NCBI GenBank assembly: GCA_965217585.1
Contig: OZ244561.1
Span: forward strand, 224,001 to 288,000
Source: Candidatus Latescibacterota bacterium
Lineage (GTDB): Bacteria > Latescibacterota > UBA2968 > UBA8231
DNA length: 64,000 bases
Direction of reading: 5' to 3'
The position numbers were made by a program, and so were the translations under genes. Numbering within the stretch: the first letter of the stretch is position 1; the number at the start of each line of letters is the position of its first letter. The notes below the pieces were generated by a model. The model saw only the letters and a list, made by a program, of their open reading frames with translations, did not search any database and had not been told where the DNA came from. Shown piece after piece: positions 7,158 to 29,186 of this stretch.

Positions 7158-7955
7158 TTAATCCGGTCCATTGCCCGCTATGACAATGCCTTCGGCTACT
7201 AGCTGCTCGGCGAGAGCCTGCGCTTGCCCGGTCGGCAGGCGGGCGTTGTTGGTGATGATCACGTCGGCCCCTACGTAGCGGACGCCGCGCAACCCTTCCA
7301 GGCTTTGCAGCGCACCGTTGTCGCTAACTTCCAAAAAGTCCCGCACTCTAGCTAAGTAGTGCAGGCCCTCTAGGCTTTGCAGCGCGTCGTTGAACCAGAT
7401 GTCCACGCTGCCTTCGATCTCCACGAGGTGCGGCATGTCCGTCAGGGACATAAGCGACTTATTGCGGACGAGCGCCAAGCCCCCACTGACAGAGGCCAAG
7501 TTCTCCAGCCCTTTGAGCGAGCCCAGGGCCTTGTTTTCAAAGATCAACAGCCCCTCTACCACATGAGCAGCTTTGCCGGCCGCGGGCGTAGGCAGGGGCG
7601 GTGGTGCGGCCGCCGGACCTAGCCCAGCGCCGACGCTTTCAAGCCCTTCCAGTCCCGCTAGACTTTCCAAGCGGTCGTTAAACCAAATCTCGACGCTGCC
7701 CTCGACGCGCCTCAGCCCCTCCAAGCCCGTCAGCTCGACTAAGCTGCTCCCAACGATCTGCAAGTCGCCGTCTATGATGTACGCAGCGCCCCCTTTTTCC
7801 CTAAGGGCAGCGATATCTGCTGGCGACGCAATGACAACGCCCTCTGCCAAGATGACCGGCGCTACCGGGTCTTTGCCACAGCCCGCCAGCGCGACGAGCA
7901 ACGGCAAGATTGATCTAACACACGGCTCAAAAATCCCGCGCACACCGGAACCCAA
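7158..7955 (-). CDS. Receptor L-domain/leucine-rich repeat lipoprotein
   Basis: Lipobox LAGC; repeats of NxxLxSLxGLExLxxVxG; start codon uncertain. Confidence 0.75.
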   Translation of the reverse strand: MGSGVRGIFEPCVRSILPLLVALAGCGKDPVAPVILAEGVVIASPADIAALREKGGAAYIIDGDLQIVGSSLVELTGLEGLRRVEGSVEIWFNDRLESLAGLEGLESVGAGLGPAAAPPPLPTPAAGKAAHVVEGLLIFENKALGSLKGLENLASVSGGLALVRNKSLMSLTDMPHLVEIEGSVDIWFNDALQSLEGLHYLARVRDFLEVSDNGALQSLEGLRGVRYVGADVIITNNARLPTGQAQALAEQLVAEGIVIAGNGPD

Positions 7956-8763
7956 TGTCGATATCGGTCAACAGCGGATGATAAGCTTCTCGATTCGCCG
8001 CGGGCAGGGACTCCTTCTCAAACCACCACGACCCACCCCGCAACACCCCGAACTCCCCGCGCAACGGCCCCTGCGGATTGTCCCGTGGACTCTCTGCATA
8101 GTAGGTGTCCCCGTACCAATCGGCCACCCACTCCCACACGTTGCCCGCCATGTCGTGTGCCCCGTACGGCGACACGCCGGCGGGACGGCTGCCTACCGGC
8201 TCGGTCGCTCCGGCGATAAAGCGAAAGTTGGCCTCGTCGCCTACCAGTTCGTATCCCCAGGGATAGGTGCGCCCGTCGGTGCCGCGCGCGGCCTTCTCCC
8301 ACTCGGCCTCGGTCGGCAGCCGCAGACCAGCCCACGCGCAATAGTCGAGCGCGTTTTGGCGGTTCACACAGTTGATGGGATGGGTGTCGTCGGCAAAGCC
8401 ATCGTAGTTGCAGCTAGGAGCGTAGGCCGGCTCTTCGCAGGCGTCGGCCTCCACGCAGCGCCGGTACCGTCCTACGGTGACCTCGAACTGGTCGATATAG
8501 TACGCGGAAAGAAAAACTTGATGCGGAGGCTGCTCGTCCGGGTCGCCCGCGTCCCAACCCATCACAAAGAGGCCTTCGGGCACGAGCACCATGGCGTGCT
8601 CGGCTTTGTTGACCTCGGTGACTGCGGTGGGAGGGTCGTCTTCGGTAGCGGGAGCCTCGCTAGGTGGGGTGGGAGCAACCACGCGATCTCCGCTCACTTG
8701 CCCCGGGTCCTTTTGGCCGCAACCAAGGGCCCACAGGGCCATGCACACCAGTGCGCGACTCAA
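7927..8763 (-). CDS. FGE-sulfatase (SUMF1/EgtB/PvdO family) domain lipoprotein
   Basis: Motifs RLPTEAEWEKAARG, DMAGNVWEW, VLRGGSW, IGFRCAR; lipobox ALGC. Confidence 0.9.
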   Translation of the reverse strand: MSRALVCMALWALGCGQKDPGQVSGDRVVAPTPPSEAPATEDDPPTAVTEVNKAEHAMVLVPEGLFVMGWDAGDPDEQPPHQVFLSAYYIDQFEVTVGRYRRCVEADACEEPAYAPSCNYDGFADDTHPINCVNRQNALDYCAWAGLRLPTEAEWEKAARGTDGRTYPWGYELVGDEANFRFIAGATEPVGSRPAGVSPYGAHDMAGNVWEWVADWYGDTYYAESPRDNPQGPLRGEFGVLRGGSWWFEKESLPAANREAYHPLLTDIDIGFRCARDF

Positions 8764-8773
8764 CGTGCAGCCC

Positions 8774-10765
8774 TCAGAACACGACCTGCGATACGGCCTT
8801 GGAAATCAGCGCAATGGCAATGGACGTCATGCCAATCAGGCCCACACCGCACGAGTACCCGGCCAGTACGATGGGCGCGTACGCGTACCAGCGCTCGGGG
8901 CCAAAGCGCTTTTGCAAGTAGAAGCGGCCCAGCAGGGCACCGACGAAGTTGAGGATGGCAAAGTGCGGCCACCCGCCGAGGCCGGCGACAAAACCATAGA
9001 AGATCCCCAGCGGTGCGCTGAGTGCGCTCAGCAGCGCGTACAATGCGCCGCTAAAGACCAGCCCAATCCCGATGTAATCCCAGCGAATAATTTGCGTCAC
9101 CAAGCTCTGGCCCGCACCCGGCAGGGTGGACTTGGCCCAGAACGCCTGCATGGTGGCGTGGAAGGGCCACATCTTTTGCACGAACGGGTACGCCGAGGAA
9201 GGAATCGGCCCGAGCTTCCATATCAGCGACCAGAACAGGAAGCTACACACAAACATGACGGCCAAGGTCAGGGCCGTCATCTTGACGATGCTGCCAAAGC
9301 GGGTGCGCGTCAGCTCTAGCTGCTTGAATACTTGCGCCTCGTAGCCCCACTGGAAGATCGGCACCGGCGCGAACCAGATCCCGGCCCCTTGGTAGCCGGA
9401 CAAATAGAAGCTGGCCTCGCGCAGATAGGGAAAGGTCACCCCCTGCGGCGACCCCGTCAGGCCGATCATCCGCGTGCCGATGTACGAGTAGATCGGCGTC
9501 CACACAAAGCCGAAGAACGCCGTGATCCACCAGGGAAAATCGGGCACCAAGTAGTATACCATCAGCACGAAGCCCAGCGTGCTTACCGCCCAGATCCCCA
9601 AGGCCACGACAATGCGGATGTCGCCGCGCTCGGGGCTGGGGCCCCGGTCAGCTTCCCGAGCCGGCGCGCGCTCCTTGCCGACGGCGAGCAAGACCTTGCC
9701 CGCCGTATAAAAGCCCACGGCCGCGACCACGATGGCCCCACCCAGCGAAAAACTCAGCCAGAAGTCAAAGGTATTGGCAATCTGGGTGGGGATCGACGAC
9801 ATGCCCGGCTCCCAAGTGTACAGGATGCCGTAGGCATAGAGGATGGGGTTGGCGACCAAGTTGACCAAGATCGACGAAGCGAACACCCCTACTACAACCC
9901 AGAACGGCAGCACGAGGCCGAATAGTACGTGGATCAAATCCGTGGCCAAGCCGATGACCGCGGCGGGCAAAACCGCCTTTAGCGGCACGGTGAAGTCGAT
10001 GAAGGGAATCGGCAAAATCGACACGGTCTCGGTCAGAAAGACCGACGACAGCGTTGGCACCACCACGTAGAATATGCCCCATACCGCCCCGATAAAGGCC
10101 CCCGTGCTGAACACGTGCCAGCGCCAGCCCTCTTGCTTGGCCGAGGTCTCGGCGAGGGCGGTAGCACCGCCGGCCTGCACATAGGCCATGGGAAAGGGCA
10201 AGCGCTCGATGTCGTGGGTGATGCGGAAGAGCACGTAGCCCAATGACAAAGCGTTGACCCGCTGTAATGCAACGGCGCAGAGGAGGATGACGATGGGCCT
10301 AAGCCACGCGCTGTCGAGGAAACTGCGCTCTAAGAGCGCCTCCGACCCACGCGGGGGCACGACCCAAGTTGGAATGTGTTCAGCCAGTCCGTCGGCCTGG
10401 GGCGATTGGATCAGATACTGATCCCAGATCAACACGCCGAATGGGCCGCCGAAGAGGTCGGCCCCAGTGCCCAGCTTGCCGCCCATCATCACCAAGCCGC
10501 CAGCCACCCAGTAGAGGATGATGATCTCCTGCGTCCGCAGATACACGAAGGTGCGTTTGGCCATTTCGATAAACAGAATCAGGGTCACCCACTCGGCGCC
10601 CCCGGCCATGCTCATCCCGGTCACCAGCCCGAGGTAAATCGCGCCCGGCAGCATCACGAAGCCGACGAAAAGCGCCGCCCACAGGGTCTTTGCATTGAAG
10701 CCCGGTTCAAAGGGGGCGTCGGCGGGCATAACCGCGAAGCGCTCTTGGGCGTTGGCCTGTGACAA
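8774..10765 (-). CDS. OPT-like oligopeptide transporter
   Basis: Highly hydrophobic 663 aa; motifs ERLPFPMA and GPIPSSAYP. Confidence 0.75.
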   Translation of the reverse strand: MSQANAQERFAVMPADAPFEPGFNAKTLWAALFVGFVMLPGAIYLGLVTGMSMAGGAEWVTLILFIEMAKRTFVYLRTQEIIILYWVAGGLVMMGGKLGTGADLFGGPFGVLIWDQYLIQSPQADGLAEHIPTWVVPPRGSEALLERSFLDSAWLRPIVILLCAVALQRVNALSLGYVLFRITHDIERLPFPMAYVQAGGATALAETSAKQEGWRWHVFSTGAFIGAVWGIFYVVVPTLSSVFLTETVSILPIPFIDFTVPLKAVLPAAVIGLATDLIHVLFGLVLPFWVVVGVFASSILVNLVANPILYAYGILYTWEPGMSSIPTQIANTFDFWLSFSLGGAIVVAAVGFYTAGKVLLAVGKERAPAREADRGPSPERGDIRIVVALGIWAVSTLGFVLMVYYLVPDFPWWITAFFGFVWTPIYSYIGTRMIGLTGSPQGVTFPYLREASFYLSGYQGAGIWFAPVPIFQWGYEAQVFKQLELTRTRFGSIVKMTALTLAVMFVCSFLFWSLIWKLGPIPSSAYPFVQKMWPFHATMQAFWAKSTLPGAGQSLVTQIIRWDYIGIGLVFSGALYALLSALSAPLGIFYGFVAGLGGWPHFAILNFVGALLGRFYLQKRFGPERWYAYAPIVLAGYSCGVGLIGMTSIAIALISKAVSQVVF

Positions 10766-13324: not shown

Positions 13325-13744
13325 TCAATTGGTTGGTTCCTCGGTCTCAATGTCGATCTGTCCTACACCCGCCATGGTGGCCGATTCCATTGCGTCGATG
13401 ATATGGCCGTGCGCAGCATCGGCATCCGCAGTGATAATCAGCGTCGATGAGCCGGTGCGGACCTTTTCGCGCTCTAGCCAGCTCGTTAGCTGCCCCATGG
13501 CCACTAGCTGCCCGTTGATTTCGAGCTGGCCCTCGCTCGAAATGCGCAGATTCAGCTTCTTCTCTGCCTTGAGCTGGTCGTAGTGCACCGAGTCGGGCAG
13601 CTCAATCCTGAGCTGAGTGGCCTTGACGAAGACCGTGGTGGTCATAAAGAAGATCAGCAGCAAGAACACCGCGTCTATCATCGGCGTCAGGTTCAGTTCA
13701 AATTCGCCGGCTTTTTCGGCCAGCGACTGTCTCCGTTTAGCCAT
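13325..13744 (-). CDS. exbD: ExbD/TolR family protein (Asp-containing)
   Basis: LNLTPMIDAVFLLLIFFM TM motif; IITADADAAHG; RBS upstream of ATG 13744. Confidence 0.92.
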   Translation of the reverse strand: MAKRRQSLAEKAGEFELNLTPMIDAVFLLLIFFMTTTVFVKATQLRIELPDSVHYDQLKAEKKLNLRISSEGQLEINGQLVAMGQLTSWLEREKVRTGSSTLIITADADAAHGHIIDAMESATMAGVGQIDIETEEPTN

Positions 13745-13748
13745 GCCG

Positions 13749-14168
13749 CTATCCTTCTCCGCTCTTGGCGAAAGCAATGGCCTCAATGCCCTCGCCGCGG
13801 GCAATGTCCATCACCTGCACCACATAGGAGTGAGGCACTGAACGCGCGGACTCCAAGATCACGTTCTTGGTATTGTCGGCCTCGATGACTTGACGAATCT
13901 TTGCCGCCAATCTCGCCTTGTCCGTGACCTCGCCGTTGACTTGGATCGTCTGATCCGGGTCAATCACGATGTTCATGTCCTTGGTCGCTCTCGACTCACC
14001 CTCGCCGCCCGGCAGATCTACGCTCAGGCCCTTGGGATTGACGAAAGTGGTCGCCACCATGAAGAACACCAACAGCAAGAACATGCAGTTGATCAGCGGA
14101 GTCAGATCCGGGTTCTCCGAGGTTTTGAAGGCGCTTTTGCCGAATCCGCTCTGTCGTCTCTGCCGCAT
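13749..14168 (-). CDS. exbD: ExbD/TolR family protein (conserved TM Asp replaced by Asn)
   Basis: DLTPLINCMFLLLVFFM; GLSVDLP; VVQVMDIAR. Confidence 0.9.
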   Translation of the reverse strand: MRQRRQSGFGKSAFKTSENPDLTPLINCMFLLLVFFMVATTFVNPKGLSVDLPGGEGESRATKDMNIVIDPDQTIQVNGEVTDKARLAAKIRQVIEADNTKNVILESARSVPHSYVVQVMDIARGEGIEAIAFAKSGEG

Positions 14169-14186: not shown

Positions 14187-14861
14187 CTAACTGGCCTCCC
14201 GCTGGCTGGCCTGGAAGCGCACCAACAGGGTATTGGCGAAGGCGTGGCAGTACAGTTCCACGCTCTTGAAGACCTTTTCCGCGCGACCGGAGAGGTAGCG
14301 GTGGAAGACGATGGTCGGAATGGCGACGATGAGACCACTGGCCGTCGTAATCAGGGCCTCGGAGATGCCGCTGGCCACGGCCGCCGGATCGCCGGCCCCG
14401 GCGCGGGCAATCGCGTCAAAGGCGTTAATCATACCCATGATCGTGCCCAACAGCCCCATCAGCGGGGAGAGGACGCCAATCGTTCCAAGCGCGTTGAGCA
14501 AGCGGCCGAGATACATCTCGCCGGCCTCCTCAGTGGCCAAGATCAATTCCTGGCGCATGTCCTCTAGGTCCGTGCGATTTTCCAGCACTAAGGTGTCGTA
14601 GCGCTTGACCAAGGCGGCGAAGACGAAGTTGAGCACGCCGCTGCCCTGCCGGAATAGTTCGACGGCTCCGCCTTCGCCTTGGCTTCTGAGCACTTCTTCT
14701 GCCTCGTTGAGCTGCTGTTCGGCCTCCTGTTCGCCCGGGACCGTCAGTAGGCGCCACAGCCGTTCTATAATGATGGCTAGAGCGATCAGCAAGCAGAGCA
14801 ACAGGGGCCACATGATAGGCCCGCCTTTGAAAAATTGGTCCACTAAAAAATTTTGCTCCAT
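14187..14861 (-). CDS. exbB: ExbB/TolQ/MotA proton channel protein
   Basis: GGPIMWPL, SPLMGLLGTIMGMINAF and GISEALITTASGLIVAIP. Confidence 0.93.
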   Translation of the reverse strand: MEQNFLVDQFFKGGPIMWPLLLCLLIALAIIIERLWRLLTVPGEQEAEQQLNEAEEVLRSQGEGGAVELFRQGSGVLNFVFAALVKRYDTLVLENRTDLEDMRQELILATEEAGEMYLGRLLNALGTIGVLSPLMGLLGTIMGMINAFDAIARAGAGDPAAVASGISEALITTASGLIVAIPTIVFHRYLSGRAEKVFKSVELYCHAFANTLLVRFQASQREAS

Positions 14862-18199: not shown

Positions 18200-21133
18200 C
18201 TAGAACCCGGCCACAATATCAAAGAAGAGGCGCGAGTTGTCGAAGCTATCGGAAGCGCGTGTGGCATCGTCGTACTCCCGGCTGGTTCTGATAAAGCCGA
18301 ACTGGGAGGCGAGACTATAGCCATAGTGATCTGAGCGGTTGCTCATCATCAGCACCAGCGTCCATTCCTTGAAGTTGTCGCTTTTATCTTTCCGGTCTAG
18401 ATAGGTGTGTCGCCAGAAAGGGAAGCCTTGGAAGCCCAGTTGCAGATTGGACTTGGCCGTCAGGTCGAAGCGGGTCCTGACGATCGGCGCGTAAATCGAG
18501 AACGAGCGAATACTGCCGTCGTCCGTGGCGTCTTCAAGTATACTAGAATACTCGCGCAAGAACAGGTGCTTGAACATCGGGCGAATGTTCAGGTTACCGG
18601 CGTTGATCGTATAGTCGAGCCGGTTGACCATCGCAAGGGTCGAGAGCACCCCAGCCTCCTGTTGAGTGCCGTCGTCGAACTCGTCTTCGGCTTGGCTATT
18701 GCGAATCCATTGGACACTGTTGATGACGTTGAGGTTGGAAAACTGCCTAAAGGTCGAGCTGATGAACAAGGTGTTGACTAAGCTATTGCGCATGTTCAGC
18801 GGATCGACATCCGGCGGGAAAACCTGGGAATTGAGATCCCGCGCCTCAATCATCGGACCTTTCAAGTGCGGGACGGGGCTAGGTATCCGCTGGGTAAAAC
18901 CCACGTCTTCCCAGACGTACACGTCGTCGCGAATGTCGTCTTTGACCTGCTTAATGTCCTCGTTGATGCGAATTTTTCCCAGATAGGGCGAGACGAAGTT
19001 GTGCTCGTAGCGGGCGTAGATGGCCTTGGCCTTGCTTCCGCCAGCCGGCTCCTTCATGGTATAATAGCCGACAGAAGCCCATTTGCCCCAACGCCCCAAG
19101 CCTTTCTTCGTGGCCACCAAGTGGGCCCCCCGGCGGTCCCGTGGGTATGGATAGTCGGGCAATGCGTCGTTTTCGCGGTAATCGACTACACCGTTGTTGT
19201 TGAAGTCAATGCCGTAGATGAAATCCGGCGGATCGGCGTCGTAAAAGAGGATCGGCTCGGTCCAGTCGGGAATGCCGTTGAAATTCTGGTCGCTGTCCGG
19301 GATTAGGTCGTTGTTTTCGTCCAAGCCGGGGAAAATGCCCGAATCCGACTTCTCCGCACTGGGCAGTTCGTTGATCATCTCGTCTGGCCACTGATCGTTG
19401 TCGTCATTATCGGTCATGACAAACATTTCCTGCATCTGTGGACACACAAAGCAATCGTCGCTGAAGAAGGCTACGCCGCCGCGGTCGCTGTCGTAGTTGC
19501 CACTGTAGTCCGGATCTAGGTTGAAAATTTCGCCACCTATCTCGATCGGGCCTACTTCCTTTTGGGCCGTGAGGAAATAACCGAGGGCCTGCTTGTCAAA
19601 GCGCTTGCCGGCATTGCTGCCCACTGGGAAGAGAAAGTACTGGGGATTGGCGACCAACTCGCCCTTTACTTTTAGCCCTTTGAGACTTAAGTCCCAGTCC
19701 AGCCCGTAGAGCACCTGACCGGTGGGGATGCCGTAGTCGAACTCGACCACCTTGCGGCCCGAGTCGCTGCCGTCGGCGCGCAGAACCATATAGCCTACCC
19801 GGGTCGGATCGAGCAGAGCCCACTTGTATTGCAAAAACGGCTGCGCCTGAGTGAATGTCGGATCCGGCACCACCGGCCAGTGATTGAAGGCGTCGGGATT
19901 TTCCGCTAGCACATCTTCGAGCGGTTTGATTGCGTCGTCGCCTTTCAGCCCGGTAAAAGGATTGACGTACTTGCTGCCGCCTGGAGCGTAGGTGTCGTCC
20001 CCGCCAGCCACTTTATCCACATTTTTGTCGTGGGCCCGCTGGTTGAAGAACAAGTGCTGTTGGCGCACCAAAATGCGATAGTCGCCCTCGACATCGGCCA
20101 AGAAGCGCACGAACTTCATCGTCAGCCCCGGCACAAAGTCGTCGGGATCTGCGGAGTACGCCGCGTCATCCGGGAGGTTGAATCGCGGCATTTGGAAGCG
20201 GAAGACCACTTGGTCGCCGCCGGCTACGATCAGCCCGCCCTCGGCTCCGCCGACGGGATCAATCATCTTCAGGCTCGAGTCGTACTCGGGATCGCCTTCA
20301 ATGCTGGTCAGGCGCACCCGCTGCCCCTGCGACTCGCCGATGATCACCACATCTACGTCATAGACCGTGGCCGCCCGGCCTATATCGTCGGGCGAATCGT
20401 CTTCGACGATGACTTCGATAAAAGAGGGCGGCAGCATGCTATAGGGGGTATCGCCCTTGAGGAAGGAGCCGTTCTCATCGGCAGTATTGGCCATGTGCTG
20501 ATTGAAGTACGTGGCACCCATGCGCAGCACATTGCCCAGCTTGGTCTCCCAGTGGCCACCAAAGATCAACACCGGCGAGGTCTCCCTAGTCGCTTTGAAG
20601 GTCGAAAACTTGGCGGCACCCAACATGTCGCCGCCTTGGCTCAGCATCAGGGTGAATCTGTTGTCCGAGGAAGCGCCGTCGAGCAAGATGCCATAGAAGC
20701 GCGGGTCGCTAAAGGTCAGATCTGAAAACTTAGCGCGGATGTCCTCGCCCAAGGTCACTCGGTAGTTCCAGCCCTTGTACGAGTCGTTGAGCATCACCAA
20801 GTTGGCGAACCATCCTAAGTACTGGGCCGTGCGAGTGTTGATATTACTTTCCCCAGGGCGGGAAAATTCCCAAGAGAAGACATTGAAACCGCGCGACAGA
20901 TAATTGCCTAAGCGGTCGTAGCGATTGCGTGCGTTGATCACCGAAGGATAGGGATCGTACTCCTTGCGCCCGTAGTTCAAATACGGTTCGGGATGGCCGA
21001 GGTTGAGAAAATCCCGGTTGCGCAGGAAGGTCTGCGCTTCGGCTTCGGCACCCAGCATACCCAACCCAACAAACGCTAGTAGCGCGGTCCTCACCAGGCT
21101 TTTTCTCGCATTACTCATGGCAGCTATCCTCAT
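18200..21133 (-). CDS. Putative large outer-membrane beta-barrel protein with Asp-rich Ca-binding-type repeats (paralogue B)
   Basis: Signal peptide (AEAEA-Q), amphipathic beta-strands, C-terminal Phe (LFFDIVAGF), DxN/DxDxxPD repeats; start may be 21118. Confidence 0.7.
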   Translation of the reverse strand: MRIAAMSNARKSLVRTALLAFVGLGMLGAEAEAQTFLRNRDFLNLGHPEPYLNYGRKEYDPYPSVINARNRYDRLGNYLSRGFNVFSWEFSRPGESNINTRTAQYLGWFANLVMLNDSYKGWNYRVTLGEDIRAKFSDLTFSDPRFYGILLDGASSDNRFTLMLSQGGDMLGAAKFSTFKATRETSPVLIFGGHWETKLGNVLRMGATYFNQHMANTADENGSFLKGDTPYSMLPPSFIEVIVEDDSPDDIGRAATVYDVDVVIIGESQGQRVRLTSIEGDPEYDSSLKMIDPVGGAEGGLIVAGGDQVVFRFQMPRFNLPDDAAYSADPDDFVPGLTMKFVRFLADVEGDYRILVRQQHLFFNQRAHDKNVDKVAGGDDTYAPGGSKYVNPFTGLKGDDAIKPLEDVLAENPDAFNHWPVVPDPTFTQAQPFLQYKWALLDPTRVGYMVLRADGSDSGRKVVEFDYGIPTGQVLYGLDWDLSLKGLKVKGELVANPQYFLFPVGSNAGKRFDKQALGYFLTAQKEVGPIEIGGEIFNLDPDYSGNYDSDRGGVAFFSDDCFVCPQMQEMFVMTDNDDNDQWPDEMINELPSAEKSDSGIFPGLDENNDLIPDSDQNFNGIPDWTEPILFYDADPPDFIYGIDFNNNGVVDYRENDALPDYPYPRDRRGAHLVATKKGLGRWGKWASVGYYTMKEPAGGSKAKAIYARYEHNFVSPYLGKIRINEDIKQVKDDIRDDVYVWEDVGFTQRIPSPVPHLKGPMIEARDLNSQVFPPDVDPLNMRNSLVNTLFISSTFRQFSNLNVINSVQWIRNSQAEDEFDDGTQQEAGVLSTLAMVNRLDYTINAGNLNIRPMFKHLFLREYSSILEDATDDGSIRSFSIYAPIVRTRFDLTAKSNLQLGFQGFPFWRHTYLDRKDKSDNFKEWTLVLMMSNRSDHYGYSLASQFGFIRTSREYDDATRASDSFDNSRLFFDIVAGF

Positions 21134-21169: not shown

Positions 21170-22030
21170 TCAGCGCTGGCGATAACCAACGCTGAACCGA
21201 TGTACACCTCCATAGCCGGAGAGGTGTAGCGGGTAGGAATAAGCATAATCGAAATGCCATTGCTTATAGTTGTGGCCAAGGCCCACGTTGAGCTCTCTAT
21301 CGTCAAAACCCGAACCAACCGCGGCTCCCCCCATGCGGAACCGGGCACCGTTGAGGCTCACCGTCCGCGTCTCGTACCCCACTCTGAACTTGGTTCGCCC
21401 ATCGCGGCGCTCAATGTCGAGCAGGACTTCCCGCCCTGCCAAGTTGAGCAAGGCGGCCGCGACCACGGCCGGCTTTTCTTTGCCTGCGGCTTGGCCACCC
21501 GCTGCGATATTGGCACCGTTTAAGCCTTTGGCGACCAAACCCAAGCGCAGGTACGCCCGCGGGTGTATGAAACCCACTTCCCAAGTGGCACCTACATCGA
21601 GGTGCCAAGCCCGGTGCGCTAGATCACCAGCTTTCCAAGCGCTGGTGCGCAAGCCGCCGCCTAAGGCGAATCGCTCGTGCAACGGCCGCCCGTAGCCCAA
21701 GGCAATCACTTCTTCGCGCCAGCCATCGGCACCGAGAAACGAAAGGCCCAGTTGCAAACCGCCGCCCCGCAAAGGGCCGGTTACCGACAAGCCGTTTAGG
21801 GCTGGACTTTGGTCCAACCCGGGATAGAGCAACGCGTGCGTCGTACCAGCCTGCCACTTTTGCTGCTGGGCGTTGCCAGCCGGATTGTACCAAACGGCCT
21901 CAGCCGTCTGAATACTGGCGGCGAAAGCCCCGCCCAACGCCGTGCTCTGGGCCCCCCGTCCCGCAAATTCAAAAGCAGCGCCGACTGGGGGGACAAAGGC
22001 CAGCAATAGGACGCTAGTACGCCACCACAA
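21170..22030 (-). CDS. PorV/PorQ-like outer-membrane beta-barrel
   Basis: GAQSTALGGAFAA...AVWYNPAG N-terminal hatch motif; FDYAY...GGVHRFSVGYR C-terminus. Confidence 0.75.
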   Translation of the reverse strand: MWWRTSVLLLAFVPPVGAAFEFAGRGAQSTALGGAFAASIQTAEAVWYNPAGNAQQQKWQAGTTHALLYPGLDQSPALNGLSVTGPLRGGGLQLGLSFLGADGWREEVIALGYGRPLHERFALGGGLRTSAWKAGDLAHRAWHLDVGATWEVGFIHPRAYLRLGLVAKGLNGANIAAGGQAAGKEKPAVVAAALLNLAGREVLLDIERRDGRTKFRVGYETRTVSLNGARFRMGGAAVGSGFDDRELNVGLGHNYKQWHFDYAYSYPLHLSGYGGVHRFSVGYRQR

Positions 22031-23672
22031 AAGTGCCCCGGCGCGCCTTGCCGCTTTCTTCTATCATAACCTCGTACAGATAAAGCCCCGGCACGACAAC
22101 GCGACCGCTGCCATCGCGGCCGTCCCACTCGAACTGATAGGTGCGGGCGCTTCCGGTCTGCGCCAACTGGCGAATCGATCGACCGGTCAAGTTGTAAATT
22201 TTTAGCACGACTTCCCGGCCCGCTTCGATATTGCCGACGACGAAAGCAAAGCGCGCATGCTCGTCTGCAAACGGCGAGAACGGGCGCGGCTGCACCTGCA
22301 CTTCGCCCAAAAGCTGCAACGGCGTCCCCGCAGCCAGTACCGTCCAAGTGGCACCCGGCATTTCTCGCCCCTGCTGCCAGTTCACGTAGCCTTCTCTGTC
22401 GCCTTGGGCCTTGTTGCCAGCCTCAAATCGCATGGCGGTCTTGTCGCGCACAAAGAGCGCCTGTCCCTCAATTTCGACGGTCGCCATTGCGCTGATTTGC
22501 TCGCTAGGTGCAAGCTCTACCAGCATCCCCTCCCGATCCGGCGTCGGGCCCCAAGTGTAGCCCTCTGTAGGCACGAGTTCTCGACCATCGACGCGCACGG
22601 CTGTTACGCGGAGCAAGGGGCCTTGTACGCGCAAGAGATCCACTCCATAATCATCGACGCCAGCCGCGATCTCCACTCGGTAGATCAGCGTCGCTTCCTC
22701 GCCCTTGCGCAGCGAATCGGATACGGCTACCTCCGCCAAGAGCTGCTGGGCGACCAAGACTGGATCGTAGTCAATGGCAATGCGCTTGAGCACCGGACTG
22801 ACAAAGGGGGCCGAATTCGTCAGGCGGGCTCGGTACGCCAACCGCGCGACCGGCTCGTCTCCTCTGTAGAAGAATTCCCCGTCCGTGTGCGCCGCAACGC
22901 TTCCCCAAGGCTCCTCTGCTCCCTCTGCAGTGGCTCCGCGCACTTGCAGTTCAATGCCCGTGCGCTCCGCGCGCTCTACTTGCCAGCGGATCAGCCCTAC
23001 GTTGACTGGGGTAGGCGGGGTGAAGCTATCCTCTATGAAGCCTTCGCTAACGTAGCCCACGCCGAACACCTCGATTTCCCCGATGGCGACCCAGTTACTG
23101 CGGTCTTGGCGGATCAGTGTCAGCCGCACGAAGCGACCCTCGCGCGGGATCGCCTCACCGCGCTCGTCGGTTGCGGCCCAAGTAGAATCTGCGCTCGTAT
23201 CTACATTGAGGACGAAATTGTCCGGCTGTTCCGCCAAGAGATGCCAAACTTGCGGCGCCACTTGGGTGGCTGTTTCGAGCCTGTACCCACGCATGAAATA
23301 CTCGGGCTGGTTCAGCGCCGTCTCGCCAGCTAGCACTCGCACCCGCTTGATCGCCCGGTCCAGTCCGAGATCGACGGTAAACTGCTTGTCGAACACGTGA
23401 TTGGTGCCCGAGATCCACTCGCTCCGCACGAGGTCAATCGCGCCGTCGGTTAGAGGCACAGGCTTGTCGAAATCGTCTATCACCGATTGTCCCAAGGCCA
23501 CGTTTACATCCTCGTCCAACTGCGCCAGAATGACGAGGCTATCTGGATGCACCTGTACGCCTTGGGTCGTTCCCAAGGCGAATGTATCGACCGCGTCCAC
23601 CACCCAAGTCTTTAATTCAGCACGGCACGGACTGAATTCGAGCAATAGCAAAAGTGCGCCCAGCCCCAGCAC
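22014..23672 (-). CDS. Secreted protein with discoidin-like and C-terminal FlgD Ig-like (T9SS CTD-like) domains
   Basis: FTVDLG...RFVRL...IGEIEVFG; PRPFSP...LKIYNLTGRSIRQL...WDGRDGSGRVVVPGLYLY. Confidence 0.8.
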   Translation of the reverse strand: MLGLGALLLLLEFSPCRAELKTWVVDAVDTFALGTTQGVQVHPDSLVILAQLDEDVNVALGQSVIDDFDKPVPLTDGAIDLVRSEWISGTNHVFDKQFTVDLGLDRAIKRVRVLAGETALNQPEYFMRGYRLETATQVAPQVWHLLAEQPDNFVLNVDTSADSTWAATDERGEAIPREGRFVRLTLIRQDRSNWVAIGEIEVFGVGYVSEGFIEDSFTPPTPVNVGLIRWQVERAERTGIELQVRGATAEGAEEPWGSVAAHTDGEFFYRGDEPVARLAYRARLTNSAPFVSPVLKRIAIDYDPVLVAQQLLAEVAVSDSLRKGEEATLIYRVEIAAGVDDYGVDLLRVQGPLLRVTAVRVDGRELVPTEGYTWGPTPDREGMLVELAPSEQISAMATVEIEGQALFVRDKTAMRFEAGNKAQGDREGYVNWQQGREMPGATWTVLAAGTPLQLLGEVQVQPRPFSPFADEHARFAFVVGNIEAGREVVLKIYNLTGRSIRQLAQTGSARTYQFEWDGRDGSGRVVVPGLYLYEVMIEESGKARRGTFVVAY

Positions 23673-24330: not shown

Positions 24331-25107
24331 TTACTTATTCTCCACCCAACGCACTCCGTGATCGACATTGAAGTGGAATTTCAAGTCGGTAAATTCCACT
24401 GGATTGCCGTATCCTACTTGAAAGCGATCAAAGGCCAGAATGAAGTCATTTACTTCGAGGGTGAACGACTTGGTTTCTGCAGGCAGCGGTGGGAAGGTCA
24501 ACTTGCCGACATATCTGGAGCCTTTGCGCACAGGCTTTTCTCGGTGGTACGCGCTCTTGTTCCAGATTGGGCCGCGATCCAAGCTGGCGTGATAGCGCAC
24601 ATTGCCTTCTTGTCCCCCCCACTTCAGGTAGGAATAGTCGTAGAACTCATCCTTGTCGTACCAATTCCCCGCCCCTTGGCCACAGAGCAAGCGGCTACCG
24701 TCGTCCAAGCGCAAAATGGTCTGCGTAGGATCTAGCTCCACCCGCTTCCGGGTGCGGTTGCTCACCGTCACTTCAAAAACGGTCCACAAGGGCGGCGTAT
24801 AGTCCAAGCCGGGGATTTCGACTCCAGTGAGCGTATAGGGCGTGAAGCGGACGTCGTATTCGGCGTCGAGCATGGCATCGTCGTAGAACTTGACCTTGAC
24901 TTGCACCCCTTGCTCGCTCCACACGACCGAACTATCGATTGGATCGATGTAATAGGTCTCTCCATCGGGCAGGACCGGCTCCAGCTCGATAAAGTACTCC
25001 TGCGAATGCGATTCGAGGGATCTGAGGGTAGCACACCCCCCGGCGGCCAACGCCAAGCACAGGAGGACGCGAATGTGTTTTGCGATGAGTCTCATGTGTA
25101 TTCGCAT
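24331..25107 (-). CDS. Conserved hypothetical lipoprotein (paralogue of 12526-13293)
   Basis: Lipobox AGGC; motifs shared with 12526-13293. Confidence 0.8.
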   Translation of the reverse strand: MRIHMRLIAKHIRVLLCLALAAGGCATLRSLESHSQEYFIELEPVLPDGETYYIDPIDSSVVWSEQGVQVKVKFYDDAMLDAEYDVRFTPYTLTGVEIPGLDYTPPLWTVFEVTVSNRTRKRVELDPTQTILRLDDGSRLLCGQGAGNWYDKDEFYDYSYLKWGGQEGNVRYHASLDRGPIWNKSAYHREKPVRKGSRYVGKLTFPPLPAETKSFTLEVNDFILAFDRFQVGYGNPVEFTDLKFHFNVDHGVRWVENK

Positions 25108-28079: not shown

Positions 28080-28159
28080 GAAAACCCCTCGCGGGTCATA
28101 TTGAGCGACCTATTAATTAATGGGCGAAAACATATGTTTGCCCAAGCTCGCGGATCAAG

Positions 28160-28198
28160 AAAAAAAAACGGGAAGCAGGCGTCAAGCCCGCTTCCCGT
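28160..28198 (-). terminator. Rho-independent terminator downstream of the CBM9-like gene
   Basis: ACGGGAAGC...GCTTCCCGT stem next to an A9 tract (U tract on the minus strand). Confidence 0.8.
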
Positions 28199-28226
28199 CT
28201 TTAGAACCTTACCCAGAGGCCATTGA

Positions 28227-29186
28227 CTACTGGACGAAGGTCTCCTTTACGCGGCCCCAAGAATCTTCCTCGACCGCGGCCGCGGTCCCTGTCGGGCCAG
28301 CCGGCGTATCCACGAAGACCCAGTTGGCGAACTCGGACTGATTGCCGCCAGCCCACCCTACGCACTGAAGCTGGCCGCCAAAACCATCTTCGCCGTCGGG
28401 ATCGGGCGGCAGCCAAGTAAAGCCCATCTCAGAGCCAACCGTGGGAGCTTCAAAGAGGTTACCGTTACGCAGGAAGGTATCCCACGGCAACTTGCCTTCA
28501 ATCACGTAGTCGGCGTCGCCCTCGTCGCCGAACTCGTCGCCAGCATCGCGAAAGGCGTACTCAAATCCCTCAAGTGCGTCGGGATCGTGGACATTTATGC
28601 GCTTCTGATCCACGGTGGTGACTAAGCAGACAGATATCTCGTTCGAGCCAAAAGGCACGGCCATGAAGTTGACTATGTTCAGGTTGACGAACTCCTGAGT
28701 CGGGTCGCCACCCGGGTGATCTTCGTTGTTCAGGTCGAGGTAGAGGGACATACTGTCGCGCTCCCACCAAGCCCAGGCCCGCTCTCCACCCTCGGTGTCG
28801 CGGACGTTATCGCTGACCTCGGTGATGTAGTACAGAGCCTCGTCGTCCCACGCCTGCCAAATCACCGAAGAGTAATCGGCGTCCGTGCGCCCCTCGCCCG
28901 CTACTTCGGTCTCGCCGTTTTCATTGAGCTGGTTAGTACTCACTTCGCTTTGCCCGTTCGCTTGGTCGCGCCAACCATACTCTTGACCGTCGAGCTGAAT
29001 CTGGCTTGGCGAGCAGGGAAATTCCAGCGCACCAGCCCACTCGTCAGCCACCGTCATGCGGTCGGCGTCAAGCGTGGGGGGTTGGGTGAACTTGGGCAAG
29101 TCGAAGTAGCGAATCGGAGGCTGGGCACTGGCCAGCGTAGTAAAGCAGAGGGCCGCGATAGCGGCCAAAAGGGTCAACTTCTTCAT
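28227..29186 (-). CDS. Secreted CBM9/DOMON-like sugar-binding protein with C-terminal SWGRVK tail
   Basis: Signal peptide (ASA-Q); AWDDEALYY..EVSD, DSMSLYLD, YVIEGKLPW; ends TAAAVEEDSWGRVKETFVQ. Confidence 0.75.
   Translation of the reverse strand: MKKLTLLAAIAALCFTTLASAQPPIRYFDLPKFTQPPTLDADRMTVADEWAGALEFPCSPSQIQLDGQEYGWRDQANGQSEVSTNQLNENGETEVAGEGRTDADYSSVIWQAWDDEALYYITEVSDNVRDTEGGERAWAWWERDSMSLYLDLNNEDHPGGDPTQEFVNLNIVNFMAVPFGSNEISVCLVTTVDQKRINVHDPDALEGFEYAFRDAGDEFGDEGDADYVIEGKLPWDTFLRNGNLFEAPTVGSEMGFTWLPPDPDGEDGFGGQLQCVGWAGGNQSEFANWVFVDTPAGPTGTAAAVEEDSWGRVKETFVQ

Follow-up and report, generated by a model that had tools for sequence, protein, structure and literature searches.

The window, the whole stretch of 64,000 nucleotides analysed here, contains an operon of 15 co-oriented, tightly spaced genes on the minus strand, with a gene for a tail-tagged protein 147 nt upstream of the barrel A gene (Table 1). 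Subtraction of coordinates places the intergenic spacing among the 15 genes between a 56-nt overlap and 48 nt. The first-pass annotation had described this run and its upstream gene, and the 16 genes, every one on the minus strand, are found where it had placed them; its statement that no porKLMN, sprA, TonB-dependent receptor or tolB gene is recognisable in the window also stands, judged by family matches across the genes of the locus and the flanking genes scanned. It had missed a plus-strand DUF4159 gene together with a conserved neighbour encoding a 344-aa protein, and both belong to the system. Four runs from one study yielded RNA-library contigs, at least 95% alike, that span 22-28 of the locus's 30 bins and also cover the tail-tagged gene.

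Table 1. Features of the locus, with window coordinates, strand and basis of assignment
Feature	Position	Strand	Basis
Tail-tagged CBM9-like protein, secreted, 319 aa	28227..29186	-	PF06452
Barrel A, 989 aa	25110..28079	-	AF2 model, Foldseek
Lipoprotein A, 258 aa, lipobox, Ig-like beta-sandwich	24331..25107	-	AF2, homologues
Lipoprotein ending QKLLF, 218 aa	23674..24330	-	conserved position
Surface-type protein, 552 aa, C-terminal FlgD-Ig/CHU_C (T9SS-type) domain	22014..23672	-	Pfam
Small outer-membrane barrel, PorV/PorQ/PorP superfamily, 286 aa	21170..22030	-	NF033709, profile of relatives
Barrel B, 977 aa, C-terminal Phe	18200..21133	-	paralogue of barrel A
TPR protein, 1090 aa, N-terminal hydrophobic segment	14910..18182	-	Pfam TPR families
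ExbB/TolQ-type stator subunit	14187..14861	-	PF01618
ExbD/TolR paralogue 1	13749..14168	-	PF02472
ExbD/TolR paralogue 2	13325..13804	-	PF02472
Lipoprotein A', 255 aa	12526..13293	-	identity to lipoprotein A
Double-parvulin (SurA/PrsA-type) isomerase lipoprotein, 568 aa	10786..12492	-	Rotamase families
Polytopic inner-membrane protein, OPT-superfamily-like, 663 aa	8774..10765	-	ESM-Atlas likeness
FGE-sulfatase-domain lipoprotein	7927..8763	-	PF03781
Receptor-L/LRR-like lipoprotein, last in run	7158..7955	-	PF01030
DUF4159 protein, 397 aa	30393..31586	+	PF13709
Secreted protein, 344 aa, co-transcribed with DUF4159 gene	29362..30396	+	pair conserved in G126
DUF6785-type permease, 634 aa, edge of locus	2866..4770	-	DUF6785-family HMM

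Barrels A and B are paralogues (35% identity, E 7e-166) whose signal peptides are visible in the translations. In barrel A the signal peptide is followed by a disordered, conserved N-terminal stretch (23-116) and then by the giant beta-barrel, and alignment columns reveal invariant Asp/Asn-rich loops (DNDDxD and DFNNNxxxDxxE). The AF2 model of barrel A is all-beta (pLDDT 79, pTM 0.79), and its top Foldseek matches are all outer-membrane barrels, with MtrB first (E 1.6e-9) and then SlpA, LptD, FimD and SprA (8gl6_A, E 2.6e-4); the protein thus models as a large all-beta outer-membrane barrel, as had been expected of the ~980-aa proteins. Neither barrel belongs to a family in Pfam or NCBIfam, a 71-member barrel profile found no relative among PDB sequences (best E-value 0.78), and the ESM-Atlas clusters nearest to barrel B are all unnamed. 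Judged by sequence, the ~980-aa barrels are an undescribed protein family, and sequence and fold bear out the earlier view that they are not TonB-dependent receptors, SprA or another known T9SS part.

Lipoproteins A and A' share 36% identity (E 7e-35). Lipoprotein A is modelled as an Ig-like beta-sandwich (pLDDT 87.9), for which the best fold matches, MPT63, YjhA and ApaG, include none at E <= 0.001; its 81 homologues are all unnamed, and Pfam families occur in only one of them, the weakest match, as an unrelated pair. Lipoprotein A' is the form present in most modules, with module lipoproteins scoring higher against it than against A, and two long paralogues carry a weakly TonB_C-like C-terminus (22.5 and 17.4 bits). 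The 218-aa QKLLF lipoprotein has no family in Pfam or NCBIfam and is specific to the barrel-A sub-module, occupying the same position in G126, L083 and L075 and, as a longer 311-aa form, in L067. The isomerase lipoprotein carries two parvulin domains and has 44 paralogues in the genome. For the 663-aa protein, the earlier label 'OPT-like' draws on an ESM-Atlas likeness of 0.97 to 'peptide transporter' clusters (OPT in 33% and 15% of members), alongside likeness to DUF6784/6785 clusters, and finds no counterpart in Pfam at E <= 0.01 or in NCBIfam. The 634-aa permease matches the DUF6785-family HMM at E 2e-149, the family being defined by a PF20581 match on a paralogue (E 4.9e-114). At the end of the run, the FGE lipoprotein matches PF03781 (E 4.8e-54) and the L-domain lipoprotein PF01030 (E 3.7e-6); neither turned up when the other loci were labelled with models built for other families. 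An identity of the FGE lipoprotein with GldK was ruled out (82.5 bits against a cut-off of 350).

The small barrel scores 44.5 bits on NF033709 (cut-off 90), a profile of nine relatives matches the solved PorV 6h3i_F (E 7.8e-8), and the relatives themselves match NF033709 in nine of nine cases and PorP/SprF in six; the label 'PorV-like' is therefore correct at superfamily level. Such a barrel lies between the CTD protein and the giant barrel in L015, L083, L075, L101 and L109; in L112 and L114 it adjoins the CTD protein, and the giant barrel is 7 kb away with several ORFs in between. The C-terminus of the 552-aa protein matches FlgD_ig (29.5 bits, cut-off 27) and CHU_C (E 0.002), and the protein falls into one family, 169 strong, of non-enzymatic proteins of binding type. 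Among 65 barrel-adjacent CTD paralogues, FlgD_ig is matched by 61, CHU_C by 59, the carbohydrate-binding F5_F8_type_C by 23, a NedA-like domain by 17 and a catalytic family by none, so that the CTD partners look like binding proteins rather than varied cargo. The tail-tagged protein contains a CBM9-like domain (PF06452, E 1.1e-8) and ends in EEDSWGRVKETFVQ. Its family, of ~310 aa, carries WGx[IVLM]K within the last 16 aa in 30/35 plus 5/6 members, the conserved tail of the CBM9-like proteins being SWGxIK. Tails with WGx[IVLM]K occur on 65 ORFs of the genome, 39 of them at most eight genes from a barrel, and the tail-tagged gene adjoins barrels in other genomes as well.

The motor genes comprise one ExbB (PF01618, E 7.7e-29) and two ExbD (PF02472, E 7.2e-26 and 2.4e-28 for paralogues 1 and 2). 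Their best models are tolQ for ExbB (88.7 bits, with 65.5 on exbB) and tolR for both ExbD (~57 bits), all below the equivalog cut-offs (221 for tolQ and 127.3 for tolR). The conserved transmembrane Asp column of the alignment holds Asn in paralogue 1 and Asp in paralogue 2, for which translation probably begins downstream of the TTG listed. The 1090-aa protein matches many Pfam TPR families through repeated YbgF/CpoB-, BamD- and PorW/SprE-like units; it exceeds the cut-off of TIGR02795 (YbgF) at 210 bits spread over six stretches and reaches 113.6 bits on the PorW/SprE model (cut-off 250). A TPR gene directly follows the last barrel in 11 of 12 distant loci examined and also in the modules of this genome (G000).

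The DUF4159 protein (PF13709, E 1.2e-8) has a cytoplasmic N-terminus, one transmembrane helix, a K/R/P-rich linker and a periplasmic DUF4159 domain, and its gene is transcribed divergently from the operon. An SxxxH motif lies in the transmembrane helix of 10 of the 18 paralogues in G000 and five of six distant ones, and likewise in the canonical TonB of G000; the window copy is without the His. An HMM of the DUF4159 N-terminus ranks canonical TonB second among non-family matches, at a marginal E of 0.021, and in L109 and L114 the DUF4159 gene directly follows exbB-exbD. We regard this protein, with its TonB-like topology, as a candidate TonB/TolA analogue. Its 344-aa neighbour has no family in Pfam or NCBIfam; the gene pair recurs in G126 (43% identity), and L116 has an unlabelled ORF of similar size at the corresponding position.

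MAGs that bear the titles Latescibacterota, Zixibacteria and Zhuqueibacterota share a core order: CTD protein, PorV/Q-like barrel, giant barrel, TPR protein of ~1,050 aa, ExbB, ExbD, DUF4159 protein and lipoprotein A. This compact core includes the T9SS-type CTD protein and the PorV/Q-like barrel, with no permease and no enzyme. Synteny of the gene set extends to further genera and families and to candidate phyla under different titles, and the system is one of Latescibacterota and some neighbouring FCB candidate phyla; no description of it was found in the literature. Barrels and lipoprotein A share their distribution at family level, ten families of the phylum having both and f2, f4 and f14 neither, while f3 is without barrel and did not form part of the sample for lipoprotein A. 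DUF6785 permeases are present in 154 of 168 genomes, including the barrel-less f2, f3, f4 and f14, and are absent from f10 (0/13), which has barrels.

This genome carries 80 barrel genes in 45 clusters, and about ten elaborate modules, a multi-copy nature that the first-pass annotation had not seen. The elaborate class has a private ExbB and two ExbD, a TPR protein of ~1,050-1,100 aa, a DUF4159 protein and an Ig-like lipoprotein, and our locus is one elaborate copy of this lineage-specific, multi-copy envelope system. A tblastn search located eight ExbB loci; a gene for a TPR protein of ~1,050-1,100 aa is no more than ~10 kb away from five of them and ~22 kb away from a sixth. The genome also has 18 DUF4159 genes, 22 lipoprotein-A genes, one SusD and 25 Plug-domain receptors. 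We measured the share of barrels with a family member at most eight genes away against 300 random placements, using a crude longest-ORF gene set that missed ExbB, ExbD1 and FGE in the window itself; because clustered barrels were treated as independent, the standard deviations are too small. The share exceeded expectation for the CTD/discoidin family (0.90 vs 0.39), TPR (0.71 vs 0.24), parvulin (0.59 vs 0.12), DUF6785 permease (0.57 vs 0.20), lipoprotein A (0.35 vs 0.06) and DUF4159 (0.23 vs 0.05), barely so for the generic CTD family F7 (0.34 vs 0.25), and not for sulfatase (0.19 vs 0.13) or PhyH (0.33 vs 0.38). Catabolic families near barrels include GFO/IDH/MocA (10 copies), MR/MLE (5) and amidohydrolase_2 (4), and a sulfatase and a BNR protein lie inside modules. 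Elsewhere the genome encodes a complete-looking SprA (2,145 aa), a porU-porV operon and at least 50 CTD proteins; its best GldK match is 80.6 bits against the cut-off of 350, and GldL and GldM were not found in a search run without a positive control. No TolB_N was detected in the genome by a search whose control was positive in E. coli and Caulobacter, so canonical Tol-Pal seems to be missing.

Barrel loci are enriched in OPT-superfamily permeases, SurA-like isomerases and carbohydrate-binding surface proteins. Our preferred reading, tentative and at slightly less than even chances, is uptake by a PUL-like system energised by the motor, and we rank it above a dedicated role in secretion or display. 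The first-pass annotation had claimed a conserved, undescribed, ExbBD-linked envelope module of novel barrels and lipoproteins, which synteny, the barrel model and the want of any known family support. Its headline, in which a hybrid, T9SS-like system exports FlgD-Ig or WGxxK-tailed proteins, fits the genome-wide context less well than import, which it had offered as an alternative; the enriched neighbours, the 45 loci and the catabolic families speak for import. We infer the function of every step in uptake from context. The CTD proteins would be exported by the genome's SprA/PorU system and held at the surface on the PorV/Q-like barrel, where they could capture glycan or glycopeptide, with the giant barrel serving as the outer-membrane conduit. 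Proton-motive force would be relayed from an ExbB5-ExbD heterodimer stator by way of the DUF4159 anchor, together with the TPR scaffold and lipoprotein A, so that the barrel is gated or unplugged. The tail-tagged CBM9-like protein and the SurA-like lipoprotein would receive substrate in the periplasm, the OPT-like permease would move products across the inner membrane, and most barrel loci, having no motor of their own, would share the few motor sets. Several observations count against uptake: the DUF6785 permeases are not phyletically coupled to barrels, the composition of the compact core fits secretion or display too, sulfatase and PhyH are not enriched near barrels, the window DUF4159 protein lacks the SxxxH His and the family's TonB likeness is marginal, and the TonB_C matches of the long lipoprotein-A forms fall below the Pfam cut-off.

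In a less probable reading, one that we consider unlikely, the adjacent CTD proteins, and perhaps the tail-tagged ones, would use each giant barrel as their translocon or anchor. The PorV/Q-like barrel would then be the carrier, the TPR protein a SprE/PorW and the parvulin lipoprotein a translocon PPI, with ExbBD and the DUF4159 protein replacing the GldLM motor, and the compact core is exactly the set running from CTD protein to lipoprotein. The T9SS Extended Translocon, as excerpted from PMC10994853, is made up of SprA, PorV, a PPI, SprE (a TPR lipoprotein) and SkpA, joined by SprA's N-terminal extension and energised by a PMF motor; the conserved disordered stretch of barrel A can be likened to the SprA extension described in that excerpt. 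The PorW/SprE score of the TPR protein, the SprA fold match of barrel A, and a genome with SprA, PorU-PorV and CTD proteins in which the Gld searches fell short or came back empty are consistent with such a role. The same SprA and porU-porV operon, however, are available for CTD export, and the CTD proteins that accompany the barrels come from one non-enzymatic family, others showing hardly any association. Moreover, with 80 barrels to about eight motors the numbers are in proportion for transporters and their energisers rather than for a secretion system and its cargo, permeases and catabolic enzymes are co-located, and the PorW/SprE score lies below its cut-off in a protein whose TPR repeats match one another generically.

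The locus could also encode a surface motor or adhesion machine of Agl-Glt/Nfs or SprB-SprF type, in which an outer-membrane complex that bears the CTD protein as an adhesin would be moved or put under tension by the stator, for attachment, gliding or surface-polymer handling. At three to four times the size of the porin-like GltA/B/H, however, the barrels do not resemble those of Agl-Glt, and a motility apparatus would hardly come in 45 loci in one genome, with its barrels and binding proteins diversified. The combination of one TolQ/ExbB-like with two different TolR/ExbD-like subunits does match the AglR5-AglQS heterodimer motor of Myxococcus, as excerpted from PMC11761067, and the TPR protein of GltD size, the transmembrane-helix protein with TonB-CTD-like pieces, the outer-membrane barrels and the lipoproteins fit as well, as does the binding of type-B CTD adhesins to PorP-like barrels described in an excerpt of PMC9143113. 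The permease and catabolic neighbours speak against it, as does the absence of MglA/MreB-linked, FHA or vWA-adhesin components among the families scanned, and we judge such a machine improbable. Still less credible is Tol-Pal-like envelope maintenance, in which a TolQ/TolR-like motor and a YbgF/CpoB-like TPR protein stabilise the outer membrane and the barrels are structural: the tolQ/tolR best matches, the YbgF score and the seeming lack of canonical Tol-Pal favour it, but the motor scores lie far below the equivalog cut-offs, the YbgF match consists of repeated stretches of one long protein, the genome holds six motor-TPR sets rather than one, and it would offer no explanation for the close linkage with diversified barrels, with binding proteins and with permeases. 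That the giant barrels are highly divergent TonB-dependent receptors is the most remote reading, since against the ExbBD linkage, the weaker fold matches to BtuB, FpvA and FrpB (from rank 26, E 4.7e-4 and above) and the lead that DUF6029 ('TonB-dependent receptor-like') is the nearest ESM-Atlas cluster with any family (0.89) stand the lack of any Plug or TonB_dep_Rec match at E <= 0.01, although the same Plug model detects the 25 receptors elsewhere in the genome, the better fold matches to 24- to 36-stranded barrels (MtrB, SlpA, LptD, ushers, SprA) and the failure of the barrel profile to match any PDB sequence.

Returning to motor-energised uptake, we see in the locus an assembly of unrelated parts that would do the work of TonB-dependent/SusCD polysaccharide-utilisation loci, and the dozens of loci related to it may serve nutrient uptake where TonB-dependent or SusCD systems usually do so. 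A few motors serving many barrels would resemble the many TonB-dependent receptors that share few TonBs, and a CTD protein seated on a PorV/Q-like barrel would resemble type-B CTD proteins on PorP-like proteins.

The locus in the window is one member of a family of loci rather than a single machine. Searches of the whole 7.32-Mb genome with tblastn and family HMMs recovered 80 giant barrel genes in 45 clusters, 22 genes for lipoprotein A, 18 for DUF4159 proteins, 44 for parvulin (SurA-like) lipoproteins, 75 for DUF6785-type permeases and about 169 for the family of the 552-aa FlgD-Ig protein (the CTD proteins), so that barrels, SurA-like proteins and CTD partners make up a dominant feature of this genome. 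These data establish a conserved multi-copy envelope system around an undescribed giant barrel family, with an elaborate subclass in which it is joined by ExbB/ExbD motors of its own, a TPR protein of great length, a DUF4159 protein of TonB-like topology and a lipoprotein with an Ig-like fold. In about ten loci the layout is as elaborate as in the window (1-3 barrels, a TPR protein of ~1,050-1,100 aa, lipoprotein A and DUF4159), and five of the eight ExbB loci in the genome lie within ~10 kb of a ~1,050-1,100-aa TPR gene, with a sixth ~22 kb away. The remaining loci are simpler and stereotyped, combining 1-4 CTD proteins and 1-3 barrels with a parvulin lipoprotein of ~570 aa, a permease, a TPR protein of 450-750 aa and a CBM9-like protein of ~310 aa.

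Within the window, 15 minus-strand genes run from 28079 down to 7158 with intergenic distances, calculated by subtraction of gene coordinates, that range from a 56-nt overlap to 48 nt, in agreement with the tightly packed co-oriented run described in the first-pass annotation. The tail-tagged gene, whose product carries a CBM9-like domain by family search, lies 147 nt upstream. Family searches likewise supported the labels given to ExbB (PF01618, E 7.7e-29), the two ExbDs (PF02472, E 7.2e-26 and 2.4e-28), the 1,090-aa TPR protein, the parvulin, FGE and L-domain proteins (double-parvulin, FGE-sulfatase and Receptor-L/LRR-like matches) and the FlgD-Ig protein, in which FlgD_ig is found at the C-terminus (29.5 bits against a cut-off of 27). 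The 286-aa protein labelled PorV-like scores 44.5 bits on the PorV/PorQ model NF033709, below the cut-off of 90, yet a profile of nine relatives reaches the PorV structure 6h3i_F (E 7.8e-8), and NF033709 is matched by each of the nine (best 2.7e-25), so that it is probably a divergent PorV/PorQ/PorP-superfamily protein. For the 663-aa membrane protein, the label OPT-like has language-model likeness as its only support, with no Pfam or NCBIfam family at E <= 0.01; these collections are equally blank at that threshold for the barrels, lipoproteins A and A', the 218-aa lipoprotein and the 344-aa protein. Identification of the FGE lipoprotein as GldK was rejected, its score of 82.5 bits being below the cut-off of 350. 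Barrels A and B share 35% identity (E 7e-166), and lipoproteins A and A' (~255 aa each) share 36% (E 7e-35).

A DUF4159 gene on the opposite strand had been overlooked in the first-pass annotation. On its 3' side we observed a HEAT-repeat lipoprotein, two FG-GAP/ASPIC proteins and three more TPR proteins, and because the FG-GAP and TPR families are enriched near barrels, the locus may reach ~40 kb. Two adjoining NHL-repeat (teneurin-NHL-like) lipoproteins lie just beyond the other end of the operon, also on the opposite strand. GC content drops from ~0.60-0.66 to 0.49-0.54 in two stretches of the window where ORFs are short or without assignment, and which may be mobile or foreign DNA. Long antisense ORFs overlie real genes in this GC-rich sequence, and a longest-ORF caller takes such ORFs instead of FGE, the L-domain protein, ExbB and ExbD1.

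Features of the window and of the genome carrying it (G000); positions prefixed G000:C1 refer to the genome contig, all others to the window
Feature	Position	Strand	Remark
Low-GC stretch	1-2400
NHL-repeat lipoprotein	4827-6023	+	teneurin-NHL-like
NHL-repeat lipoprotein	6020-7144	+	teneurin-NHL-like
Long antisense ORF	6500-7171	-
Long antisense ORF	7573-8952	+
ExbD2	13325-13804	-	Asp in transmembrane column
ExbD1	13749-14168	-	Asn in transmembrane column
Long antisense ORF	13890-14567	+
Barrel B	18200-21133	-	977 aa
Barrel A	25110-28079	-	989 aa
Tail-tagged protein	28227-29186	-	319 aa, CBM9-like
DUF4159 protein	30393-31586	+
ORF 3' of DUF4159 gene	31664-32482
ORF 3' of DUF4159 gene	32483-34162
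ORF 3' of DUF4159 gene	34166-35392
ORF 3' of DUF4159 gene	35882-38284
ORF 3' of DUF4159 gene	38241-40312
Low-GC stretch	50000-52000
porU-porV operon	G000:C1:578065-582940		PorU 627.5 bits
SprA	G000:C1:3678889-3685326		SprA_N 80.3 bits, ORF 2,145-2,153 aa, single match
Module with Asn/Asp ExbD pair	G000:C1:3770067-3770921

Several gene families of the window are enriched near barrels across the genome. Because the underlying gene set was a crude longest-ORF call, which dropped ExbB, ExbD1 and FGE in the window itself, and because barrels are clustered, the differences between observed and random shares tabulated here are indicative and are not exact statistics. Sugar-acid-type catabolic genes (GFO/IDH/MocA, MR/MLE and amidohydrolase_2) also occur near barrels. 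Some families are unusually expanded in the genome (HMMs, E <= 1e-5), with 162 PhyH-like proteins, 75 DUF6785-like permeases, 59 FG-GAP/ASPIC proteins, 49 sulfatases and 44 lipoproteins of the parvulin type.

Fraction of barrels that have a member of the family no more than eight genes away, compared with 300 random placements
Family	Observed	Random	Remark
CTD/discoidin	0.90	0.39
TPR	0.71	0.24
Parvulin	0.59	0.12
DUF6785 permease	0.57	0.20
Lipoprotein A	0.35	0.06
DUF4159	0.23	0.05
Sulfatase	0.19	0.13	not enriched
PhyH	0.33	0.38	not enriched

The ~980-aa proteins had been proposed as barrels, and an AlphaFold2 model of barrel A built from a 71-sequence alignment (mean pLDDT 79, pTM 0.79) is indeed all-beta, with leading Foldseek matches in the PDB that are all outer-membrane barrels: MtrB (6r2q_B, E 1.6e-9), Deinococcus SlpA (8agd_A, 2.4e-6), LptD (8h1r_A, 1.8e-5), the FimD/PapC ushers and SprA, every TM-score being <= 0.40. 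The N-terminal residues 23-116 are modelled as disordered yet are conserved in sequence, and a loop at ~606-645 is also disordered. The hallmark of the family is a set of invariant Asp/Asn-rich loops, with DNDDxD in 74 and ENDxxPDYP in 63 of the 77 full-length copies in the genome, and one loop, judged by eye, matches an EF-hand-type calcium-binding pattern. The DRxGNY motif of barrels A and B was rejected as a universal N-terminal motif, as it occurs in only 3 of these 77 paralogues, and a C-terminal Phe is present in only 8. Against 1.84 billion cluster representatives the barrel profile matches 974 proteins at E <= 0.001, of which 313 reach E <= 1e-30, and the family amounts to about 1,000 clusters at 50% identity in public data. 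Named relatives from any source are all called 'hypothetical protein', and on SlpA_C one relative of barrel B reaches 22.7 bits, where the cut-off is 35.

Within the phylum, 106 of 168 genomes contain matches to the barrel profile, spread over 10 of 14 families, with none in the families f2, f3, f4 and f14. Lipoprotein A follows the same ten families in a 71-genome sample, with none in f2, f4 and f14; f3 lay outside that sample. Co-distribution of DUF6785 with the barrels was rejected, as DUF6785 occurs in 154 of the 168 genomes, including those of barrel-less families, yet in 0 of 13 from the barrel-bearing family f10. The DUF6785 expansion itself extends over almost all of the phylum, in most of which each genome has 20-88 first-look candidates. 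In GTDB species representatives, 516 of 577 pattern-matched stretches encode relatives. Most records of the 77 loci kept are titled Candidatus Latescibacterota; the others carry the titles Gemmatimonadota/-etes, Handelsmanbacteria, Zixibacteria, Zhuqueibacterota and Zipacnadia, together with single MAGs titled Planctomycetota, Chloroflexota and Cytophagia, although titles of MAGs may be unreliable.

Synteny of the gene set in other genomes is borne out by gene order. Among 12 of the 77 loci, chosen for diversity of title, a TPR gene directly follows the last barrel in 11, and ExbB follows the TPR gene in 5. The double arrangement of the window is collinear in a genome of another genus (G126, 48-58% identity) and in loci L075, L083 and L116. 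Locus L109, titled Zixibacteria, has a compact order of CTD protein, PorV/Q-like protein, barrel, TPR, ExbB, ExbD, DUF4159 and lipoprotein A, and the same gene set is found in L114 (Zhuqueibacterota) and in L112 (Cytophagia), in both with several other ORFs separating the PorV/Q-like gene from the barrel; the L112 stretch ends after ExbD. A reduced form in G048 combines DUF4159, one or more barrels, a CBM9-like protein and a permease, with no TPR or motor gene adjacent.

A conserved transmembrane Asp of ExbD/TolR has a functional role in the stator. Asp occupies this column in 14 of 16 aligned ExbDs, and the pairing of an Asn-bearing with an Asp-bearing ExbD seen in the window recurs in a second module of the genome, which at the level of sequence suggests an asymmetric heterodimeric plug. 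The two paralogues in the window differ (reciprocal E-value 1e-14 versus 4e-118 for self). The DUF4159 protein begins with a short cytoplasmic segment, followed by a single transmembrane helix, a linker with a K/R/P fraction of 0.3-0.46 and a C-terminal domain that is DUF4159 and not TonB_C. An SxxxH motif is found in the transmembrane helix of 10 of the 18 paralogues in the genome and of 5 of 6 distant ones, the window copy being without the His, and the genome's canonical TonB shows this motif as STLLH. An HMM of the N-terminal 130 residues retrieves the canonical TonB as its second non-family match, at a marginal E-value of 0.021. The DUF4159 protein may have a TonB-like role and is a candidate non-canonical TonB. 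By family search, the window encodes no TonB_C protein, and two long forms of lipoprotein A show sub-threshold TonB_C matches (22.5 and 17.4 bits). Lipoprotein A itself is modelled confidently as an Ig-like beta-sandwich (pLDDT 87.9), and a fold search returned no solved match at E <= 0.001. A predicted complex of the DUF4159 protein (55-396) with lipoprotein A' (20-254) scored 0.01 against a mark of 0.32 in a run without controls and is evidence neither way.

The CTD proteins encoded beside the barrels look like surface binding proteins. Of 134 such proteins no more than five genes away from a barrel, our scan covered 65, picked as the 20 densest regions; they align as a single family, with FlgD_ig in 61, CHU_C in 59 (E <= 0.001), F5/8-type-C in 23 and NedA-like galactose-binding domains in 17, and none of the 65 matches a catalytic family. 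Type-B CTD proteins are described in PMC9143113 as anchored on PorP-like barrels, and a PorV/Q-like gene beside a CTD gene fits such anchoring. The tail-tagged protein is one of a family of CBM9-like proteins of ~310 aa. WGx[IVLM]K occurs within the last 16 residues of 65 of the 5,764 ORFs in the genome, 39 of them within eight genes of a barrel; a by-hand estimate gives fewer than one ORF by chance. The fuller form is [ST]WGx[IVLM]K followed by 3-8 terminal residues, with carriers mostly of 200-400 aa, and differs from PEP-CTERM and GlyGly-CTERM tags in having no hydrophobic segment after the motif. It is possibly a docking or sorting peptide. TPR domains commonly bind C-terminal peptides, and for this reason we would guess that the tail docks on the ever-present TPR proteins.

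Four RNA libraries from one study, labelled sponge metagenome, contain 33-39% of sampled words from 18200-28100 of the window, and their contigs cover, at a likeness of at least 95%, 22-28 of 30 bins between 12000 and 31900; bins without contig cover, such as 16648-17311 in three runs, are uninformative. Contig word depth was 32-46 on the tail-tagged gene versus about 3-8 on others in all four runs (~ten-fold), a poor measure that is invalid for ranking genes, and DNA may occur in RNA libraries.

On function, the first-pass annotation had put export or display first, with import as an alternative. We infer uptake, tentatively and with a confidence just short of even, because many barrels are served by few motors, because the CTD partners are uniform, non-catalytic and of lectin type while association with other CTD proteins is weak, because permeases of the OPT superfamily are co-located and sugar-acid-type catabolic genes lie nearby, and because SusCD is nearly absent, the single SusD_RagB match of the genome being at 5215847, away from the window. 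Against uptake stand the compact core, which carries T9SS-type parts and no permease, and the lack of phyletic coupling between the permease family and the barrels.

A machine dedicated to secretion or display, parallel to the T9SS Extended Translocon, is the main rival, which we regard as unlikely. The Extended Translocon, as described in PMC10994853, is a PMF-motor-driven assembly of SprA, PorV, PPI, the TPR lipoprotein SprE and SkpA joined by SprA's N-terminus, and the system described here parallels that composition with a giant barrel whose N-terminus is extended, a small barrel probably of the PorV family, a prolyl isomerase, a long TPR protein, a PMF motor of the 5:2 type and CTD-bearing proteins alongside. 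It differs in its barrels, which are ~950 aa rather than ~2,100-2,400 aa, in having no Skp-like or PorK/N-like parts seen, in its isomerase, a parvulin lipoprotein, and in the dozens of copies per genome. The motor here is ExbB/ExbD, in place of the GldL/GldM motor that energises the Extended Translocon. The absence of sprA from the window, reported earlier, holds in that the barrels do not match SprA_N, but a separate SprA is encoded elsewhere in the genome, as is a porU-porV operon, and the C-terminal sorting-domain region of the PorU model gives 50 further matches. The best GldK score in the genome is 80.6 bits against a cut-off of 350; GldL and GldM (GldM_1st) gave no match in searches that carried no positive control, so that their absence is not established. 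Because no T9SS motor was identified in the genome, the secretion or display reading is kept alive.

A surface motor of the Agl-Glt kind is a poorer fit and quite improbable. By composition rather than sequence, and as described in PMC11761067, the Agl-Glt and Agl-Nfs systems of Myxococcus share with these loci one TolQ-like and two distinct TolR-like subunits, a periplasmic TPR protein of more than 1,000 aa, TMH proteins with TonB-CTD-like domains, and outer-membrane barrels with lipoproteins, the Glt parts comprising the porin-like barrels GltA/B/H, the adhesin GltK/CglB, the TPR proteins GltD/E/C, and GltG/J. The barrels described here are much larger, parts of a cytoplasmic platform were not seen, and the loci are multi-copy with permease and binding-protein neighbours. 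A Tol-Pal-like role also fits more poorly than uptake and is very improbable; the window motor stays under the equivalog cut-offs of tolQ (88.7 bits against 221), exbB (65.5 against 206.2) and tolR (~57 against 127.3), and TolB_N has no match in the genome in a search that was positive in E. coli and Caulobacter. That the barrels are divergent TonB-dependent transporters is hardly credible: neither has a Plug or TonB_dep_Rec match in Pfam at E <= 0.01, the window holds no Plug domain, while the same model (PF07715) finds 25 receptors elsewhere in the genome, none at a barrel locus, and in the fold ranking of barrel A such receptors enter only at rank 26, with TM-scores of 0.13-0.30, behind larger barrels.

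Returning to uptake, a fuller model, possible but somewhat improbable, would be a new class of energised uptake machine in Latescibacterota and some related FCB candidate phyla, in which plug-less giant barrels are served by a TonB-type anchor with a DUF4159 head, a ~1,050-1,100-aa TPR scaffold and an Ig-like lipoprotein, lectin-like proteins displayed through the T9SS capture substrates together with periplasmic CBM9-like proteins docking via a C-terminal SWGxIK, and SusCD/TBDT loci are largely replaced. A bolder variant of this model would make the same ExbBD-DUF4159-TPR sets the missing T9SS motor of these phyla. If correct, the model would account for substrate acquisition by these uncultured polymer degraders, for which a 2015 in-silico study of Latescibacteria single-cell genomes (PMC4454575) assumed outer-membrane passage through non-specific porins. 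It would also provide testable roles for DUF4159, DUF6784/6785, the barrel family, lipoprotein A and the SWGxIK tail. In searches of the full-text literature, 'DUF4159' appeared only in a Pfam database paper, and no paper was returned for 'DUF6785' or for 'Latescibacterota' with 'type IX secretion'.

The best fold matches of barrel A, namely MtrB-MtrA/C, SlpA and LptD-LptE, are partner-filled barrels, and the lipoprotein gene directly after barrel A recalls such a pairing. They differ in that TM-scores are only 0.15-0.33, sequence kinship is absent (best E-value 0.78 in a PDB search with the barrel profile, which returned nothing), cytochromes, SLH domains and LPS-transport partners do not occur here, and only 22 lipoprotein-A genes accompany 80 barrels. 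With Ton/TBDT systems and SusC/SusD PULs the loci share an ExbB/ExbD stator; an inner-membrane-anchored protein that has a TonB-like transmembrane motif and a linker rich in K/R/P, its gene lying behind exbB-exbD where the operon is compact; many outer-membrane barrels per few motors; and the combination of barrel, surface binding proteins, inner-membrane permease and catabolic enzymes. Four TonB_C matches occur in the genome, one adjoining a canonical exbB-exbD-exbD set and one being a long lipoprotein A. The differences from Ton and SusC/SusD lie in barrels that carry no Plug/TonB_dep_Rec signature and whose fold matches are to larger barrels, in a TonB-like protein that ends in DUF4159 instead of TonB_C, in T9SS-type CTD and tail-tagged CBM9-like binders in place of SusD/E/F lipoproteins, and in the added ~1,050-1,100-aa TPR protein and Ig-like lipoprotein. 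To our knowledge, few architectures for energised outer-membrane transport have been described (Ton/TBDT, Tol, T9SS and Agl-Glt). The system described here would add to these an energised architecture whose outer-membrane and periplasmic parts are new, a candidate non-canonical TonB among them. We place it with the PMF-driven trans-envelope machines, and the chance that it represents a new class of uptake system is a real one.
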